Below are positions 8,162-42,251 of a stretch of DNA of 64,000 nt, piece by piece (the first letter of the stretch is position 1; every line of letters starts with the position of its first letter). The position numbers were made by a program, and so were the translations under genes. The DNA is from Christensenellales bacterium (lineage in GTDB: Bacteria; Bacillota; Clostridia; Christensenellales; DTU072). The stretch lies in NCBI GenBank assembly GCA_050309775.1, contig JBNRMV010000012.1:16168-80167 (forward strand). The letters are read 5' to 3'. The notes beneath the pieces are model-generated. The model searched no databases. It had not been told where the DNA came from and saw only the letters and a list, made by a program, of their open reading frames with translations.

Positions 8162-8229
8162 TTTTCGATTATGCGTTATAATGTAATTAAGCTAGATTGC
8201 TTGAAATACAATATCAAGATGAGGATGCA

Positions 8230-8697
8230 ATGAAGAAATTTTTAGACAATCAGCAACTCGCCGAAAAAATAGCAGAAACCGCCAAGAATGCCTCAAAAAA
8301 GACATTAGTTTTATGGGCAACGGACTGCGCAGAGCGTGTTTTGCCCAATTTTGAAAGATTCTATGGCAGCAACAATCCCAAAATGGCTATATTGGCAGGC
8401 AGAAAATGGCTTAGCCGCGAAATTCCGGAAGCAGAGGCGCGCAAAGCTGCATTTGCCGCATATTGCACTGTAAAAATATCAAAACACCCCGAAGCATGCA
8501 ATGCGGCTCGTTCAGCATCGCAAGCGGCATCCAGCGCCCACTCTTCTTCACATGCGCTGCAAGCCGCCACTTATGCAACAAAATCGGTGTTTTACGCATC
8601 TACTGATGAAGAAGATGCAGCAGAAAATGTCAAAGCAGAACGCCTTTGGCAATATGAATTGCTTACCGAACTTATAAAACGTCAAGAAAACAAATAA
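8230..8697 (+). CDS. Imm5-like putative immunity protein
   Basis: LWATDCAERVLP, AARSASQAASSAH, AERLWQ resemble the Imm5-like family; SD GAGG at 8221 favours ATG 8230 over TTG 8197. Confidence 0.65.
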   Translation: MKKFLDNQQLAEKIAETAKNASKKTLVLWATDCAERVLPNFERFYGSNNPKMAILAGRKWLSREIPEAEARKAAFAAYCTVKISKHPEACNAARSASQAASSAHSSSHALQAATYATKSVFYASTDEEDAAENVKAERLWQYELLTELIKRQENK

Positions 8698-8766
8698 ATA
8701 CAAAGGTTATTGCTAGAAGTTGATAGGGTTATTTATCTAAGATTGCAGTAAGTAGCAGATATACAT

Positions 8767-8838
8767 TGCGATAATAATGGAACAAATATGTTTTATTTAT
8801 CGCATTTAACTTTAATGCGATATCGGTGGAACAAATAT
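8767..8838. repeat. 49-bp-period direct repeat TGCGATA-N4-TGGAACAAATAT (2 copies)
   Basis: copies start at 8767 and 8816; the first lies in a TGCGATAA...TTATCGCA inverted repeat (8767-8804). Confidence 0.6.
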
Positions 8839-9062
8839 TATTGTTCTATATATATGGATATCTAAATTACTCGCTCAATTAGAGCATATGAAGCACTTCA
8901 TAACCTCGACAACGCATGCCTATTGTTGCATTATCTTATTCAAACTAAGATATTACAGCGAAGTATAATAAAAGAATCCTTTATGTGAAATAGTTGTTTG
9001 CTTGCCATAAATATCAGCAATACTAAAAAGTATGCGTTTGCGGATATACTGCGCTAGGCGTA

Positions 9063-9410
9063 AAAATATGTTGTTAGAGGGGGTTGTAAGTTCAGCATTT
9101 CAACAAAATCGATAGTATTATCATTTGACTAGAGAATCGACATCGAAACCTATATAGTATATAATAAAAAGCTTGCATTTTGGATGGATAGCTATGTTTA
9201 GTGCTAAAACAAACATGTTGTTTTAGTGGGATTGTAAGCGGAGCAGATAAAAAAAACTCAATCATAGTTCGATAGCGCATCATTTGACTAGTGAATGCGA
9301 TATAGGAATCTAGCCAGAGGGAATAAGCCAACTAAACATGAGATTTTAATCATTATTTCAACTAAAGTTCGATAGCAGCATCATTAGACAATATTTAGAC
9401 CTAACCAGAG
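9063..9410. repeat. degenerate direct repeats (~150-160 bp period plus a partial third copy)
   Basis: ATGTTGTT..AG.GGG.TTGTAAG near 9068 and 9215; TCGATAG..ATCATTTGACTAG.GAAT at 9109 and 9269; AGTTCGATAGC..CATCATT again at 9366. Confidence 0.6.
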
Positions 9411-9635
9411 ATTAAACTAGAGAAGTGAGATATTAAAAACCAGATGGGAACAAGCAAAATAATTGTTGAAAAAATATAAGCTTTCGCTGCGCTAAGAAAA
9501 TACAGTAAAGGACTAGAACACATTACTTGATTCTAAGATTGTTAGTAACCATTGACAAATGCGGAAATCTTGATACAAACTATGCATCAATTCAATGTAT
9601 TACAGTTTTCCCACTAAATTATAATAATAATGCAC

Positions 9636-9671
9636 TATCTTTTCGCAAAAGCTGTGTTTTGCGAAAAGATA
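9636..9671. other. putative chromosome dimer resolution (dif-like) site
   Basis: perfect inverted repeat TATCTTTTCGCAAAA-GCTGTG-TTTTGCGAAAAGATA with a 6-bp asymmetric spacer, ~550 bp upstream of a Xer recombinase, at the apparent skew flip. Confidence 0.65.
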
Positions 9672-9791
9672 TATATCTGTCAAACTGTCTGATTTTTTTG
9701 AAATGACACACTCTCCTACTGATTTTTTGATACTTCCCTGCGCAATAAGCTCAATATATAGCTGCATTTTTATGCTCTCCTTGTACCTATA

Positions 9792-10102
9792 TATTGACAA
9801 CAACTTTTACCATTTGCGAAATATACAATATATATATATACATATTTATAGCCTCTTGATGGCCAACAGTTTAGTTATATCATATAATAAATAATCTTAC
9901 TCCGCACTCTCCGCTATTGTTTTAGCCAGAATTAAATTGATTATTACTAATATTGACAACAACTTTTACCATTTGCAAAATATACAATATATGTAAAAAC
10001 ATACTTATATCCTCTTGATGGCCACCAGTTTATTTATAATAAATTATCTTACTCCTCACTCTCCGCTATTGCTTTAGCCAGAATTGAATGGATTATTACT
10101 AA
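9792..10102. repeat. tandem duplication, units of 159 and 152 bp
   Basis: both units begin TATTGACAACAACTTTTACCATTTGC (9792, 9951), share CCTCTTGATGGCCA and CACTCTCCGCTATTG.TTTAGCCAGAATT, and end GATTATTACTAA. Confidence 0.92.
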
Positions 10103-10182
10103 TTTTGTTAGCTGTTTTCGACAATATCCGTCAATATGTGCCAAATTGTCCTATTGACTTTTGGCTTGAGTTGTTTAACCTA

Positions 10183-10211
10183 TGGACATAACATATATTT
10201 TTTGTTATCAT
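10183..10211 (+). promoter_or_regulatory. promoter of xer gene (extended -10, probably leaderless)
   Basis: TGGACA-17 bp-TATCAT with TG extension; ATG at 10218 with no SD. Confidence 0.5.
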
Positions 10212-10217
10212 AATTAT

Positions 10218-11258
10218 ATGAAAAACGCAAATTATTTTGAAGAAAGAGCCATACGCAACACAAAAAAAATTCGAGAGAAACTTGCTATATTGCCTTACTT
10301 TTGCAGAGAGTTTTTTGTGGGCATTGAGATGGTGACTTCACCTCTTACCCGTCTTGGTTACGCAAATGATTTGAAAATATTTTTTGATTTTTTAATTTAT
10401 AATGTGCCGGCATTCCGCAACAAAGAAATGGAAGAAATCGAGCTGGCCGACCTTGAAAAAGTCACGGTTACCGATCTTGAGATGTACATGAGCTATTTGA
10501 CGCATTATGAACTTGACGGCGTCACCTACACCAATAAAGAGTCAGGCAAAGCACGCAAAATAAGCGCTGTTCGCACTATGTTTAATTTTTTCTACCGAAA
10601 AGACAAACTTTCCGAGAATGTAGCCTCAAAAGTATCAATGCCAAAAAAGCATGAAAAGGAAATCATACGCTTAACTGGCGAAGAAGTGACAAAACTCATT
10701 GAAATGCTTGAAGAAAAGCCAACAATGAACTCTTCTCATCAATCAAATTACATAAATAACAATACAAAACAGCGTGACCTTGCCATAATTGCCTTGCTGC
10801 TTGGCACAGGAATTCGCGTCAGCGAATGCGTTGGTCTAAATATAAACGATATTGATTTTGAAACAAATGCGTTTGTCGTTACGCGCAAAGGTGGCAGCCG
10901 TTCTACGCTTTATTTTTCCGACGAAATAAAGCAAGTGCTTAAAAATTATGCCGAATACCGCAAGACCCTTGATAAAAATAACCCTGCTTTGTTCTTGTCG
11001 CTGCAAAATAATAGAATGAGCGTGCGCGCTGTCGAATATATGATAAAAAAATATGCAAAAATAATCAGTCCGCTGAAGAAGATATCCCCTCATAAGCTGC
11101 GTAGCACTTACGGTACAAATCTTTATAGAGCCACCAAAGATATATATGTTGTAGCAGAAGTCCTAGGACATAAAGATATAAACACCACAAAAAAGCATTA
11201 TGCGGCAATCAGCGAGGACATAAAGAAAGAAGCCTCAACAAAAGTAAAGTTGAAATAA
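10218..11258 (+). CDS. Xer-family tyrosine recombinase (XerS/XerC-like)
   Basis: catalytic R (GIRVSE), K (TRKGG), HxLR (HKLRST), H (VLGH), Y (KHY); SAM-like N-terminal domain; ORF track start 10182, ATG 10218 preferred. Confidence 0.9.
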   Translation: MKNANYFEERAIRNTKKIREKLAILPYFCREFFVGIEMVTSPLTRLGYANDLKIFFDFLIYNVPAFRNKEMEEIELADLEKVTVTDLEMYMSYLTHYELDGVTYTNKESGKARKISAVRTMFNFFYRKDKLSENVASKVSMPKKHEKEIIRLTGEEVTKLIEMLEEKPTMNSSHQSNYINNNTKQRDLAIIALLLGTGIRVSECVGLNINDIDFETNAFVVTRKGGSRSTLYFSDEIKQVLKNYAEYRKTLDKNNPALFLSLQNNRMSVRAVEYMIKKYAKIISPLKKISPHKLRSTYGTNLYRATKDIYVVAEVLGHKDINTTKKHYAAISEDIKKEASTKVKLK

Positions 11259-11275: not shown

Positions 11276-11908
11276 ATGAAATTGGCAATGGAGCGCAATC
11301 TGCTCAAGGTGTATGATTTTATCATAAACTTTCGCGCAAATGTCGGTTATCCCCCCTCAATAAGAGAAATAATGGCAGCGCTTAGCATAAAATCAACTTC
11401 TACCGTACACTCATACTTAAAAAAACTTGACCAAAAAGGATACATTCGCATATCAACAAAAAACAAAAGCCGCGCAATAGAATTGCCTGCAACCGTGCCT
11501 GACGGAGCATCATTGGCGTTGCCGCCGATATGCAATACGCCTGACTACACTCAAAACAAAGCCCTGAATGAGTATAAAACCCTGAATTCCTATCTGCTTA
11601 ATCAAACAAAAGACCTGATTGTCGTAAGAATGCCGGACAATGCGTTCATTGAATTGCTTATAAAAAAGAATGACTACCTAATTGTCAAAAAAACTCGAGA
11701 AACCCAAAAGAATGATTTGCAATTATTAAAAGACAGTAAGGGCTATTTATTAAAGAGAACAACAAAAAACCAGCATTATTCGACATATATTGAACCGATT
11801 GATAATATCAATGAGCCGCAATCCGGCATAATCGGTACTGTGGTATGTTTGGTGAGAGATGAATGTATAAATCCTGATTGCTCCAAAATGCTACATAATT
11901 TGGAATAA
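11276..11908 (+). CDS. LexA-like repressor with degenerate S24 peptidase domain
   Basis: LexA wHTH (GYPPSIREI...STSTVHSYLKKLDQKGYI...SRAIEL); C-terminal fold pattern retained but no AG site or GDSM serine; SD GGAG. Confidence 0.75.
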   Translation: MKLAMERNLLKVYDFIINFRANVGYPPSIREIMAALSIKSTSTVHSYLKKLDQKGYIRISTKNKSRAIELPATVPDGASLALPPICNTPDYTQNKALNEYKTLNSYLLNQTKDLIVVRMPDNAFIELLIKKNDYLIVKKTRETQKNDLQLLKDSKGYLLKRTTKNQHYSTYIEPIDNINEPQSGIIGTVVCLVRDECINPDCSKMLHNLE

Positions 11909-11944
11909 TAATTCATATATTGACATAATTTGCAATAATCTTTA

Positions 11945-11973
11945 TTGACTTTTCTATTTTATATCCTTATAAT
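11945..11973 (+). promoter_or_regulatory. sigma-A promoter
   Basis: TTGACT-17 bp-TATAAT upstream of the PadR-fusion gene. Confidence 0.7.
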
Positions 11974-12004
11974 TTAAGTATATAGATTTTTGGGAGATTT
12001 TTAT

Positions 12005-13372
12005 ATGGAACCTTCTGTAAACACAGAACTGCTACGAAGCCGTGTAGATACTTTTATTTTGAATTCCTTGAGCGAAAAGGACGGCTATGGCTATGACATT
12101 TTGAATTATATCTATACCCAAACTCAAGGTCATTACGAAATGAAACAGTCTTCAATTTATAGCGTACTAAAAAGACTGGAAAAACAAGGTTACATAAAAT
12201 CGTATTTGGGTGAAGAATCAAAAGGCGGTCAGCGCAGGTATTATTCGCTAACCGATGCCGGCAGAGAGTTTCTTGACGCAGAACAAAAACAATGGGCATA
12301 CACCCGTACTTTGCTTGATAATCTTGTTACGCAAAAAGACTTCGATTTGGAAAAAGACACTCCCCCATTCAAGGCATCAGATTTGCGCCCACTCACAAGA
12401 CGCAATCGCAATGAGGACGAGGAAACTAAGGATAAGGAAGAAAAATCCGAACAGAGCAAAGAAAAAGATACTCAGACGGCATTAGACGAGAAAACAGAAC
12501 AGAGCAAAGAGCGCCAGACTCAAACGGTATTGGCAGCAACAGTTCTGTCAAACGCTCAATCAGAGCCGCGCGTTTCACAAGCGCAAACAAGCCCACAAAC
12601 AGAGCAATCCGCATCTTCGGCGCAATATACCGACCTACAGAAACAAGCAAGGCAGTGGTTGTTTTCACCAACGGCATTGCCGAACATGAATGAGAATGAG
12701 CGCGCGGAAAAAACCATACCTTCTTTCGCGGATGAGAATTCCGAAAAGGACGACAGAGCGGCATACCGTACACTCTTTAACGAGCTATATGATAAAAAAG
12801 TCGACGAAACAAAACCTGCTCCGGAGACGCCTATTGATGACGAGCTAAATTGCCGTCATATAAATGACCTTAAGAATGTACTAAAAAACGAAGGTTATAC
12901 GCTAAAAAATTATAAGAAGGACGAAATGCTTTGCGATTATACCCGCAACAGACTGTATTATTCAAACAGATTGTTCCGTGATTGCGCACTTTTGACCTTT
13001 CTTTTTTATGCTTTGGCAGTGCTTATTGTTTACCGTTTCCGTGTGGAATTTGGCTATTCCCCTCTTTCTCTGCTTATAGTCGGGCTTTGCGGACTGGTTA
13101 TTCCGTTTAGCGGACTGCTAAAGTACTTTATTGAGCCCAAAAGGCGTATTAAAGCGGTATTTAATTTCCGCATAATCTTTGCATATAGCATTATGGCGTA
13201 TCTGCTGATTTTTGTACTCAATTTAATTATCAGCCTTGTAACGCCCTCGATTTCCCTTACTTTGCGTGATGCAAAGCTGTATCCGCCGGCAATAATAGCG
13301 CTGACCGTGCCTATTTCCGTGGTATTTTATCAGATATTGTTTAAGTCGGGGTTTTATAGTATAAAAGTGTAG
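12005..13372 (+). CDS. PadR-family wHTH protein with charged linker and C-terminal transmembrane domain
   Basis: DGYGYDI...SIYSVLKRLEKQGYI...RRYYSLTDAG PadR motif; ~4 hydrophobic helices at C-terminus; SD GGGAG before ATG 12005. Confidence 0.8.
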   Translation: MEPSVNTELLRSRVDTFILNSLSEKDGYGYDILNYIYTQTQGHYEMKQSSIYSVLKRLEKQGYIKSYLGEESKGGQRRYYSLTDAGREFLDAEQKQWAYTRTLLDNLVTQKDFDLEKDTPPFKASDLRPLTRRNRNEDEETKDKEEKSEQSKEKDTQTALDEKTEQSKERQTQTVLAATVLSNAQSEPRVSQAQTSPQTEQSASSAQYTDLQKQARQWLFSPTALPNMNENERAEKTIPSFADENSEKDDRAAYRTLFNELYDKKVDETKPAPETPIDDELNCRHINDLKNVLKNEGYTLKNYKKDEMLCDYTRNRLYYSNRLFRDCALLTFLFYALAVLIVYRFRVEFGYSPLSLLIVGLCGLVIPFSGLLKYFIEPKRRIKAVFNFRIIFAYSIMAYLLIFVLNLIISLVTPSISLTLRDAKLYPPAIIALTVPISVVFYQILFKSGFYSIKV

Positions 13373-25077: not shown

Positions 25078-26463
25078 TCACTGTATCAGCATAGAAAGCG
25101 CGCTGGCAACATAAGGACGCAGCAATGCCGGTTCGATTATGTTGTCAATATAGCCTTCTTTTGCCGAAACAAAAGCGTTCATTTCTTCCGTTCTGTATTT
25201 TTCGGCAAGTTGTTTGCGCAGTTCGATAGGCTCGCCCTTTCCTTTGAGTTCCTTGCTATAAATAACGCTTGCGGCGGCATCTGAAGATATCGGCGCAATT
25301 CTTGCATTGGCAAACGCCAAAGAATAGTCAAAACCGATTGATTTTGATACCAGCGATACATAGCTGAGCCCTATTGCGCTGCCTGTTACAACGGCAATTT
25401 TTGGCACTGTTGACAAAGCTATTCTGCGCATCAGTTTTGCGCCGCAAAGCACCAAACCTTTTTGTTCGCTCTCCAGGTCGGCAGATATGCCCTCGCTGTC
25501 CACAAGCGTTACAAGAGGCATGTCATATCTTTCAAGCATTTTTATAAAGGCGCTTGCTTTTTCCAGCGCAGCCGTACTAAACTTTTGGTTATTTGTTATG
25601 ACAAGCCCTGCGGCAATTGAATTTATGGTGACAAAATAAGTCTTTATGTCCTTTGTGTAATCTGCAAAAAGTTCGATTGCGCTGCTTGCGTCGGCAAGCG
25701 CCGCAAGCAAGTTCTGCTCGTTTGGCTGAACATTGAGAATGTCGCTTGTTCTGTTGGGGTCGTCGCCGCTGTTCAGAATGCTTTGGTTCATATAACCAAG
25801 GATTCTTTCTATCTTTTCCGGAATTTCGGCGGCAGCTTTGAAATATATTGTCGAAATAAGACTGTTCTGCGCATATGTTTGTTGTCCGACAAACTTTTGC
25901 GGAGTATCGCTGACATTTTCTGAAAGAGTCAGCGGCGGCGCTGCTGAAAGCACAGAGCTGTCAGACATAAAAACAAAGTCCGCAAGCGCAGCATACATGC
26001 CCATAAGCCCAACGGCATTGCCTTTCAATATGGCAATGTGCGGCGCATAGTCTTTTTGTTCAGCGGCGGCGGCAATAATTTCGGCATAACCCTCAAGCAC
26101 AGTTACTCCCTCGCCCAATCTGGCGCCGGAACTGTCAATTATGGAAATTAGCGGCATTTCCGCATTCATACTCTTTTTTATGCACTTCAGGATTTTGTTT
26201 GCATGCGCTTTGTTGACGCTGCCGCCCAGCACTTCGGCATTTTGCGCAACTACGCATACCGGAATGTCCCTAAGTGTGGCATAACCTGTTATGACGCCCT
26301 CGCCCAAGGCATCGCTGCCGTCAAGATAACTTTTTCCACTCATAAAAACATCAGTCTCAACAAAAGAATCCTTGTCAAGAATGTCGGATAAAAAATCTCT
26401 TATTTTTTGGGAGTGGGAAAGAACCTTTGAGGTATTGTCATTTAACAGTCCAATGTAATCCAT
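25078..26463 (-). CDS. divergent acyl-CoA carboxyltransferase (MmdA/PccB-like)
   Basis: GEGVITGY, IDSSGARLGEG, GYIDNIIEP; catalytic Gly-Gly motifs altered; SD GGAGG before ATG 26463. Confidence 0.78.
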   Translation of the reverse strand: MDYIGLLNDNTSKVLSHSQKIRDFLSDILDKDSFVETDVFMSGKSYLDGSDALGEGVITGYATLRDIPVCVVAQNAEVLGGSVNKAHANKILKCIKKSMNAEMPLISIIDSSGARLGEGVTVLEGYAEIIAAAAEQKDYAPHIAILKGNAVGLMGMYAALADFVFMSDSSVLSAAPPLTLSENVSDTPQKFVGQQTYAQNSLISTIYFKAAAEIPEKIERILGYMNQSILNSGDDPNRTSDILNVQPNEQNLLAALADASSAIELFADYTKDIKTYFVTINSIAAGLVITNNQKFSTAALEKASAFIKMLERYDMPLVTLVDSEGISADLESEQKGLVLCGAKLMRRIALSTVPKIAVVTGSAIGLSYVSLVSKSIGFDYSLAFANARIAPISSDAAASVIYSKELKGKGEPIELRKQLAEKYRTEEMNAFVSAKEGYIDNIIEPALLRPYVASALSMLIQ

Positions 26464-41432: not shown

Positions 41433-42251
41433 TTATTTCTGACGAAAAACAACGCTTTTCGTCAGTTCAATCAAATTTTTTGCCTCATTGCCATACTTTG
41501 AAAATATCTCCTCTATCTCCTTGTACAGCGAATTTACTGTTTTTTCCGCTTGATTTTTGCCAAAATATGAGGAATATGATTTTTTGTCGGCATCAAGCAT
41601 GTCATCGGTCAACTGAAAAATTATACCCAATTTTTCGCCAAACACCGCCATATCGTTGTATACCGCCTCATTTTTATGCAAATAGCAAGGAATAAGCGCT
41701 GCGGCTTTTATCAATGCGGCAGTCTTTTTTGCGTACATTGAAAGCATTTGTTCGGGTGAAGCGTCGCGCTGCAATGTAAGGTCTTCAACTTGCCCGCCTA
41801 CCATGCCCTTTGCCCCTGCGCATTCAGCTAAAAGAATAGCCGAACTGAATAGTTTGTTGTCAAAACTAACTGCTTTGAGTGCAACTTCATAAGCTAAGTT
41901 CAGCAAAGCGTCACCAGCAAGTATGGCAATGGCTTCGCCATATACCTTATGCGTTGATGGTCTGCCTCTGCGGAAATCGTCATTGTCCATAGACGGCAAA
42001 TCGTCATGTATCAATGAATATGTGTGTATGAGTTCAATGGCGATAGCAAAATCCGCAACTTTTGTCCAACTAATTCCAAGGAACTCCGCAGATAAGCGCA
42101 TTATCAGCGGTCGGATTCTTTTGCCGCCGCCAAATACAGAATATTCCATAGCGGAGTATAGTTTTTCGGGGTAAAGCCCTTTTTTCTCCTCAAAAAAACG
42201 CCGCAAACCCGTTTCAAACTCATCTATCATTTGCAAATTTTCTTTATTCAT
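41433..42251 (-). CDS. ispA: farnesyl diphosphate synthase
   Basis: GGKRIRP, SLIHDDLPSMDNDDFRRG, FQLTDDMLD. Confidence 0.92.
   Translation of the reverse strand: MNKENLQMIDEFETGLRRFFEEKKGLYPEKLYSAMEYSVFGGGKRIRPLIMRLSAEFLGISWTKVADFAIAIELIHTYSLIHDDLPSMDNDDFRRGRPSTHKVYGEAIAILAGDALLNLAYEVALKAVSFDNKLFSSAILLAECAGAKGMVGGQVEDLTLQRDASPEQMLSMYAKKTAALIKAAALIPCYLHKNEAVYNDMAVFGEKLGIIFQLTDDMLDADKKSYSSYFGKNQAEKTVNSLYKEIEEIFSKYGNEAKNLIELTKSVVFRQK

Follow-up and report, generated by a model that had tools for sequence, protein, structure and literature searches.

Single-recombinase Xer systems are treated as exceptions in the literature passages drawn on here, the cases being XerS of streptococci and lactococci, XerH of epsilon-proteobacteria and XerL of Legionellales (PMC9765430); the part of a review that we used also covers archaeal XerA as a single-recombinase system. 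In the XerS/difSL system, the unequal arms of the site and the unequal affinities for them are thought, in the passages cited, to set the order of strand exchange. Le Bourgeois et al. (PMC1914069) proposed, in the section used here, that XerS was acquired by Streptococcaceae. None of these passages on XerS, XerH, XerA and XerL mentions Clostridia in a single-recombinase role, and the survey of Kono et al. was, by the account in its cited part, restricted to genomes with XerCD orthologues. Our full-text search found no published description of a clostridial XerS-like system; the supplements of Kono 2011 and Smyshlyaev 2021, which lay outside that search, may list clostridial predictions. Here we describe a palindromic site and an adjacent tyrosine recombinase gene in a 64,000-nucleotide stretch of a Christensenellales genome (positions 16168-80167 of contig C12, JBNRMV010000012.1; genome G000, GCA_050309775.1; 18 contigs, 1.98 Mb, 96.8% complete). 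The whole stretch is referred to as the window, and coordinates are window positions unless another contig or genome is named. The palindrome is very probably a chromosomal dif site, and the adjacent gene very probably encodes the single Xer-type tyrosine recombinase that acts there.

The palindrome and the adjacent recombinase

The 36-mer TATCTTTTCGCAAAA-GCTGTG-TTTTGCGAAAAGATA at positions 9636-9671 is a 15-6-15 palindrome with 100% complementary arms, as had been claimed in an initial annotation made from the sequence alone. The gene-free stretch of about 1.5 kb reported there was likewise recovered, since no open reading frame (ORF) of at least 80 aa is found between 8698 and 10217. The palindrome contains 12 G or C among its 36 bases (33%, by direct count), versus 41-45% for the contigs. 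Perfection of the palindrome is not special in itself: the genome contains eight perfect 15-6-15 palindromes, the window site included, and mononucleotide shuffles yielded none even at 12-6-12. By eye, several of the seven others resemble terminator hairpins, with G+C-rich stems and flanking A/T runs. The case for a dif site therefore rests on sequence, position and conservation, and not on perfection.

The recombinase ORF spans 10182-11258 and could encode 358 aa; homologues of 345-355 aa align from the second ATG, at 10218, which gives a protein of 346 aa. With this start, the site lies upstream of the gene at a distance of 546 bp, in agreement with the 346 aa and the roughly 550 bp of the initial annotation. 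The protein is a tyrosine recombinase by its match to Pfam Phage_integrase (PF00589; 116.8 bits versus a gathering score of 27.1). The full set of catalytic residues claimed earlier, namely R200, K224, H292, R295, H318 and Y328, is invariant in an alignment of 22/22 orthologues. An AlphaFold model of the recombinase (mean predicted local distance difference test score 87.8) has XerA, XerH and XerD as its top PDB matches, and Cre chains are also among the fold matches, at 13-15% identity. In their source records these proteins go under the generic name 'tyrosine-type recombinase/integrase'. A nearby cluster of a protein atlas bears the automatic name 'Tyrosine recombinase XerS', so the likeness to XerS has been partly caught by automated annotation. 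A promoter-like sequence, TGGACA-17-TATCAT with a TG extension, is found within 10183-10220; its last base, 10211, is 7 nt from the start codon at 10218. Since we see no Shine-Dalgarno sequence there, the recombinase mRNA may be leaderless.

Comparison with described Xer systems

XerS/difSL (PMC1914069, PMC2965235), in the parts of these sources used here, likewise relies on one recombinase, about 350 aa long, whose gene is preceded closely by the site at the terminus. The left arm of difSL reads CATCTTTCCG-AAAA, against TATCTTTTCGCAAAA in the window, and CTGT is present within the centre of both sites (ACTGTAA in difSL). True difSL sites, which we collected from metagenome contigs by means of two difSL arm motifs printed in a review, read ...CATCTTTCCGAAAAACT[A/G]TAATTTTCTTGAAA..., and they confirm the resemblance of the left arm and spacer to difSL that the initial annotation had suggested. 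Among 108 difSL loci, the typed arm motifs are 7 bp apart in 91, whereas 6 bp separate the A-run from the T-run in the window; a gene follows about 100 bp downstream wherever the flank is long enough. The arms of difSL are, according to the review, unequal and imperfect, and XerS binds the left half much better. By contrast, the window arms are of equal length (15 bp) and perfectly complementary, and arms are often identical in the family.

XerH/difH of Helicobacter and Campylobacter (PMC2731167, PMC5241119), as presented in the parts of these sources drawn on, shares with the window a single recombinase (about 355 aa), the inner AAAA-N6-TTTT and a 6-bp centre. Moreover, difH lies near the skew peak and often adjoins the gene (PMC2731167). 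The difH arms, TTGAAAA, differ from TTCGCAAAA of the window, and the match of the family profile to XerH structure chains is weak (55 bits, versus 110 bits for XerD and 94 for XerA). In the excerpts used on XerL/dif of Legionellales (PMC9765430; bioRxiv 2021.09.12.459815), a single recombinase is again involved and the dif arms are long uninterrupted inverted repeats. However, dif and xerL are more than 400 kb apart and XerL is not detectable as Xer by sequence (PMC9765430), whereas here the gene adjoins the site and is clearly Xer-like. XerC/XerD with the 28-bp dif of E. coli and B. subtilis have the presumed job and the catalytic residues in common with the window system, and their terminus site also has a central region of 6 bp, but they comprise two enzymes of about 298 aa. 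In loxP, identical arms flank an asymmetric spacer that alone sets direction, and one recombinase, Cre, acts on the site; the arm and spacer lengths of loxP differ from those of the window site. Unlike the system proposed here, Cre/loxP of phage P1 serves phage or plasmid maintenance, with no chromosomal terminus site and no coupling to FtsK, and Cre is a distant fold match.

Profile searches place the window protein nearest to XerS. Its best NCBIfam model is XerS, at 205 bits (model positions 6-356 of 360), which is under the cut-off of 267 bits of this equivalog (NF003462); XerA follows with 174 bits, and the scores of 158 bits for XerC and 147 bits for XerD are below the respective cut-offs of 335 and 330 bits (TIGR02224, TIGR02225). 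XerS is the best model for 22/22 orthologues, with a best E-value of 5.3e-62 versus 4e-169 for true XerS, and three genes found next to difSL score 555-562 bits on the same model. Identity between the window protein and true XerS is 29% over 347 residues, the N-terminal helix included. We built a tree of 55 rows by a quick IQ-TREE search under LG+G4, with XerH, XerA and XerL left out and compared by profile scores. The 28 clostridial sequences group together in this tree with a support of 99, and the 10 XerS sequences do so with a support of 100 and a long branch (2.24), so that the clostridial proteins do not branch within XerS. Both clades join two further clostridial groups in a 99% clade, the internal order of which is unresolved; E. 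coli XerC and XerD fall outside it, as do seven XerC/D-like proteins from Clostridia. On these sequence comparisons, the window protein is not XerS proper but a member of a sister family. The initial annotation had proposed a single-Xer module like XerS/difSL; the XerS-like character stands, together with the joint 99% clade, whereas the family is separate from streptococcal XerS. One of the two further clostridial groups (210-270 bits on the family profile) has a related palindrome of its own, ACTATTCCTAAAA-N6-TTTT[A/C]GGAATAGT, located 2-3 kb past the 3' end of the gene (L333 at 6377, L337 at 6870).

Position at the apparent terminus

The cumulative G-C count of C12 peaks at 9511, 125 bp from the site, with positive skew over about 25 kb to the left and negative skew over about 80 kb to the right. 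The turning point, for which the initial annotation had suggested a check near 9650, thus falls within about 150 bp of the site. The switch in dominant gene orientation claimed there is also evident: among ORFs of at least 200 aa, 8/8 up to 13372 are on the + strand and 36/40 from 13437 onward are on the - strand. Stronger evidence for the terminus than that from the 18-contig window genome comes from two closed relatives of the same order. G033 (single contig, 2,422,126 bp) has its site at 25,321 and the local peak of the skew at 25,634, with dnaA at 1,254,057, 50.7% of the circle away; in G028 (single contig, 2,560,186 bp), the corresponding positions are 2,270,625, 2,269,332 and 910,801, with dnaA 53% away. 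The distances between site and local skew peak are 0.3 and 1.3 kb, respectively. Fifty loci have 1 kb or more of DNA on either side of the site, and in 45 of them the skew to its left exceeds that to its right. Strand-polar 7-mers learned on the other contigs also switch on C12, being distributed as 8+/2- to the left of the site and 9+/48- to the right.

The exact 36-mer has one copy in the 1.98-Mb assembly. In a scan with a position-weight (half-site) matrix built from relatives, the site scores 44.2 bits versus 6.1 bits for the next-best position of the genome, and the uniqueness on which the proposal depended is thereby established. The window site is intergenic, palindromic, lower in G+C than its genome, present in one copy and close to the skew-defined terminus of a genome that is in 18 contigs, the combination by which Carnoy and Roten (PMC2731167) recognise dif. 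Phage_integrase has five matches in the genome, namely the window recombinase, one 461-aa protein and three fragments; by eye, from its N-terminal sequence, the 461-aa protein is read as a mobile-element integrase. No match in this 96.8% complete assembly reaches the XerC or XerD cut-off, so the canonical pair that would have spoken against a single-recombinase system is lacking from it, and no XerC over the cut-off was found in the 41 relatives searched. An FtsK with the gamma domain is encoded on C13 (68 bits, 915-aa frame).

Conservation of the gene and of the site

Orthologues of the recombinase are present in 37 of 41 relatives at E <= 7e-61; the four genomes that lack one are 76%, 76%, 95% and 96% complete. 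At least 590 relatives were recovered when species-representative genomes were scanned. The best 80 of these carry the names of uncultured Clostridia, Christensenella and Christensenellaceae metagenome-assembled genomes, Candidatus Stercoripulliclostridium and Candidatus Caccovivens, and also of Lachnospiraceae, Roseburia, Enterocloster bolteae and Caldicoprobacterales. In a class-level sample of 151 evenly drawn genomes, the family is found at orthologue strength (at least 420 bits) in 21, related groups (210-271 bits) in 16, and XerC/D-like matches only (140-185 bits) in 95.

The site is conserved along with the gene. A full site was found in 71 of 110 gene-centred loci, and in all 71 it lies upstream of the gene, never downstream, at 5-2883 bp (median 416). 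This is the arrangement of an XerS/difSL-type module, with the site directly upstream of the gene as in the window, and it confirms the conservation upstream of orthologous xer genes that had been predicted. A matrix scan of 30 loci with 1.5-kb flanks recovered a full site in 20. The half-site consensus of the family is TATCTATTCGCAAAA, in which positions 7, 9, 10 and 12-15 are nearly fixed and 9/15 positions are conserved at 0.88 or above.

The initial annotation considered the perfect symmetry of the arms unusual, which does not hold: the arms are perfectly symmetric in 18 of 73 distinct family sites, the rest differing at 1-5 positions, and dif of Legionella is an uninterrupted inverted repeat as well. 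The mean number of symmetric positions is 13.25 out of 15, versus 11.73 when right arms are shuffled among species, and 0/2000 shuffles reach the observed value, although related species are not independent and these statistics overstate the significance. The variable arm positions 3, 6 and 8 co-vary between the arms. Substitutions are mirrored between the two arms; for example, in L003, from the same genus as the window, a T>G change in one arm is accompanied by the mirror A>C change in the other. The 73 sites contain 128 non-complementary arm pairs, of which 45 are A-A, 31 are C-A and only 15 are G-T or T-G. This scarcity of G-T and T-G pairs favours a protein-bound DNA dyad over an RNA stem.

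The spacers of the family read S-Y-T-G-T-S on the G+T-rich strand and are asymmetric. We considered whether the spacer always faces the same way with respect to the gene and rejected this idea: along the direction of the gene, the strand read is G+T-rich in 28 spacers and A+C-rich in 31, and the remaining 12 are even.

Besides the relatedness of the species behind the shuffle statistics, several observations count against a terminal dif site served by one recombinase. The full site is missing from 39 of the 110 fetched flanks, 13 of which have less than 1 kb of upstream DNA and 16 at least 2.9 kb. A whole-genome search with the core pattern, made for 5 of the 10 loci without a site in the matrix scan, recovered one strong site in four genomes, located 2.8, 4.0 and 16.9 kb upstream (the last in G009) and on another contig (G006), and no site was found in the G008 genome. 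The switch of the strand-polar 7-mers on C12 can be placed no more precisely than from about -1 to +10 kb of the site, and the search for FtsK-orienting motifs showed a flip of polar 7- and 8-mers there at low resolution only. The replichore map of this assembly is not closed: dnaA is 3 kb from an end of C7, yet C8 has a second clean switch, from negative to positive skew, at 42,158. This layout of C7 and C8 points to a rearrangement or else to an origin located elsewhere than at dnaA, and the skew switch on C12 could in principle be an inversion boundary. Finally, five of 40 other relatives (G025, G029, G031, G010 and G024) have, besides the XerS-like gene, one more gene that is XerC/D-like and scores 226-304 bits on the XerC model; in G029 the two genes are 24 kb apart. 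A single recombinase is thus not universal in the order.

Alternative explanations

The palindrome might be an operator only, bound by the recombinase or by a LexA-like or PadR-like regulator that would control transcription of xer-lexA-padR, with no recombination involved. Several features are of the kind expected from an operator. The site lies 5-150 bp from the gene in 25 of the 71 loci. In six loci (L045, L046, L047, L051, L054 and L090), a lone conserved half-site (e.g. TTTTGCGAATAGTTT) abuts TTGACA about 50-100 bp upstream of the gene with no second arm, and in the window a half-site-like TTTGCGAAAT follows TTGACA. The lone half-sites suggest an autoregulatory operator in species in which the full site is farther off and, together with the sites close to the gene, suggest that the recombinase may also repress its own promoter, so that autoregulation is plausible as a second role. 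As the whole explanation, an operator is improbable. The distance between site and gene ranges from 5 bp to 16.9 kb, with the site on another contig in one genome; an operator would not track the skew peak and point opposite dnaA; and the site is of the difSL/difH type.

Slightly less probable still is that the gene encodes a mobile-element integrase for which the palindrome serves as attB, attP or a hybrid attachment site, with no housekeeping dif. A site beside the gene is the layout of an integration module, and searches of IMG/VR contigs (L229-L331) found the core pattern in 103 stretches, 26 of which also match the outer arms, outside the search pattern. However, an orthologous recombinase is near the site in only one of the 103. 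The gene is single-copy and is found in most relatives and, at 420 bits or more, in the 21 class-level genomes mentioned above; each genome has one site instead of two flanking an element; the terminus position is fixed in the two closed genomes; and the neighbours of the gene are cellular, a lexA-like gene in 63/110 loci and a padR-like gene in 46/110.

Three short viral contigs (L277, L298 and L322) are tailed-phage fragments with a strong site upstream of terminase and portal genes, and L298 also encodes a protein of the FtsK/SpoIIIE family. No tyrosine recombinase was found in five viral records of one recurrent group. Two records of this group, about 61 kb long and estimated to be complete, have one good and one degenerate arm, and each encodes a large serine recombinase; these phages therefore need not depend on a host Xer. 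Integration of phages through the host enzyme (IMEX) may occur but is not supported here. A second palindrome family with other outer arms, AAAGTTCGTAAAA-N6-TTTTACGAAC..., recurs in viral contigs of 35-60 kb (for example L237, L240, L253, L257 and L279), and one 42-kb viral contig carries two palindromes of this second family (L241, L304).

The least probable explanation, a nucleic-acid hairpin (transcription terminator, RNA element or cruciform) whose position is incidental, is very hard to sustain: a perfect stem of 15 bp closed by a loop of 6 nt would be expected to fold, seven other such palindromes exist in the genome, several of them terminator-like by eye, and arm co-variation also fits a stem, but no T-run follows the stem, a terminator scan of 8600-10300 was empty, the few G-T or T-G pairs indicate that RNA pairing is not what is conserved, and the sequence of the half-site itself is conserved beyond complementarity. 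A terminator and an RNA element were each tried as separate candidates; the former was rejected on the terminator scan and the latter because an Rfam scan of 8500-10400 gave chance-level matches only (RsaJ, 21.7 bits against a gathering score of 100; Corona_pk3, 21.4 against 35.6).

Proposed mechanism

The reading of the palindrome as a chromosomal dif site with its own single recombinase allows a working mechanism to be outlined. By analogy with XerS/difSL and Cre/loxP, we infer the binding, the cleavage positions, the dependence on FtsK and the role in dimer resolution. One recombinase monomer would occupy each identical 15-bp arm. FtsK, translocating toward the terminus, would pair the two sister sites of a chromosome dimer at the septum. 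The resulting tetramer would then carry out a two-step strand exchange where the arms border the 6-bp centre, by way of 3'-phosphotyrosyl intermediates formed by Y328, and the dimer would be resolved. Identical arms leave the asymmetric spacer as the sole element that can lend the site a polarity and decide which strand pair is exchanged first, as in Cre/loxP. The clostridial single-Xer dimer-resolution module put forward in the initial annotation is thus supported by the position at the terminus, the uniqueness of the site, its conservation and the lack of XerC/D in the genome, and it is probably to be retained with the correction that the enzyme, judged from its sequence, is not XerS proper.

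Neighbouring genes and other features

Coordinates of the features are collected in Table 1. The LexA-like gene lies directly downstream of the recombinase gene and is the sole LexA-family match in the genome; it is followed by a PadR-like gene, the two together spanning 11276-13372. In the 110 loci, the LexA-like homologues counted above lie within the fetched flanks, mostly but not always downstream of the recombinase gene in the rows inspected, and the PadR-like homologues were also counted within these flanks. Both kinds of neighbours are also found in loci named Lachnospiraceae or Enterocloster. The LexA-like gene is a conserved neighbour of the recombinase and may or may not belong to the module. 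This neighbour links the presumed dimer-resolution gene with an SOS-type repressor. The last gene before the gene-free stretch (8197-8697) matches Pfam Imm5_like and encodes a putative immunity protein (98.7 bits).

Table 1. Features of the window around the dif-type site
Feature	Position	Strand	Remarks
Plateau of the cumulative GC-skew maximum, apparent replication terminus	9203..9776	.	values <=15 counts below the maximum
Left arm of the dif-type site, TATCTTTTCGCAAAA	9636..9650	.	presumed binding site of one recombinase monomer; 14/15 match to half-site consensus TATCTATTCGCAAAA
Central region GCTGTG, asymmetric, 6 bp	9651..9656	.	presumed strand-exchange region; only source of polarity
Right arm, TTTTGCGAAAAGATA	9657..9671	.	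exact reverse complement of the left arm
XerS-like tyrosine recombinase, 346 aa	10218..11258	+	Pfam Phage_integrase; best NCBIfam model XerS; earlier in-frame ATG at 10182
LexA-like repressor gene	11276..11908	+	Pfam LexA_DNA_bind 56 bits; NCBIfam LexA 71.9 bits, cut-off 110.95

Between the site and the gene, a tandem duplication occupies 9791-10107, with a unit of about 159 bp and copies 87-88% identical. Each copy contains TTGACA (9794-9799 and 9953-9958) followed by a half-site-like sequence, TTTGCGAAAT (9813-9822) in the first and TTTGCAAAAT (9972-9981) in the second. The possibility of a repeat element was rejected, since the repeats occur only here in the genome and show no conservation within the genus beyond 34 matching bp in L004; they are read as a local tandem duplication. 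To the left of the site, the region 9060-9430 contains short direct repeats at spacings of 100-288 bp, for example ATCATTTGACTAG[A/T]GAAT at 9120 and 9279.

Implications for the Clostridia

The recombinases and sites described here look like a widespread relative of the streptococcal XerS system, one that has no description in the searched literature, and the family bears on the origin of XerS. We tentatively entertain a broader picture, which we hold at somewhat less than even confidence. A large undescribed single-Xer family would serve much of the Clostridia, and XerS/difSL would be a fast-evolving offshoot of the clostridial clade. The arms of the site would be actively kept symmetric, so that the 6-bp spacer alone orders strand exchange, and the enzyme may be exploited by tailed phages of these hosts, in which matching sites lie close to the packaging genes. 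If the family does the job of the known single-recombinase systems, a sizeable share of gut Clostridia would resolve chromosome dimers with a single enzyme acting at a near-palindromic site. A natural dif whose arms are fully symmetric around an asymmetric spacer would be a clean substrate for the choice of strand order by a homotetramer and for activation by FtsK, and the 36-bp consensus would provide a terminus marker with which fragmented genome bins of Clostridia may be oriented.

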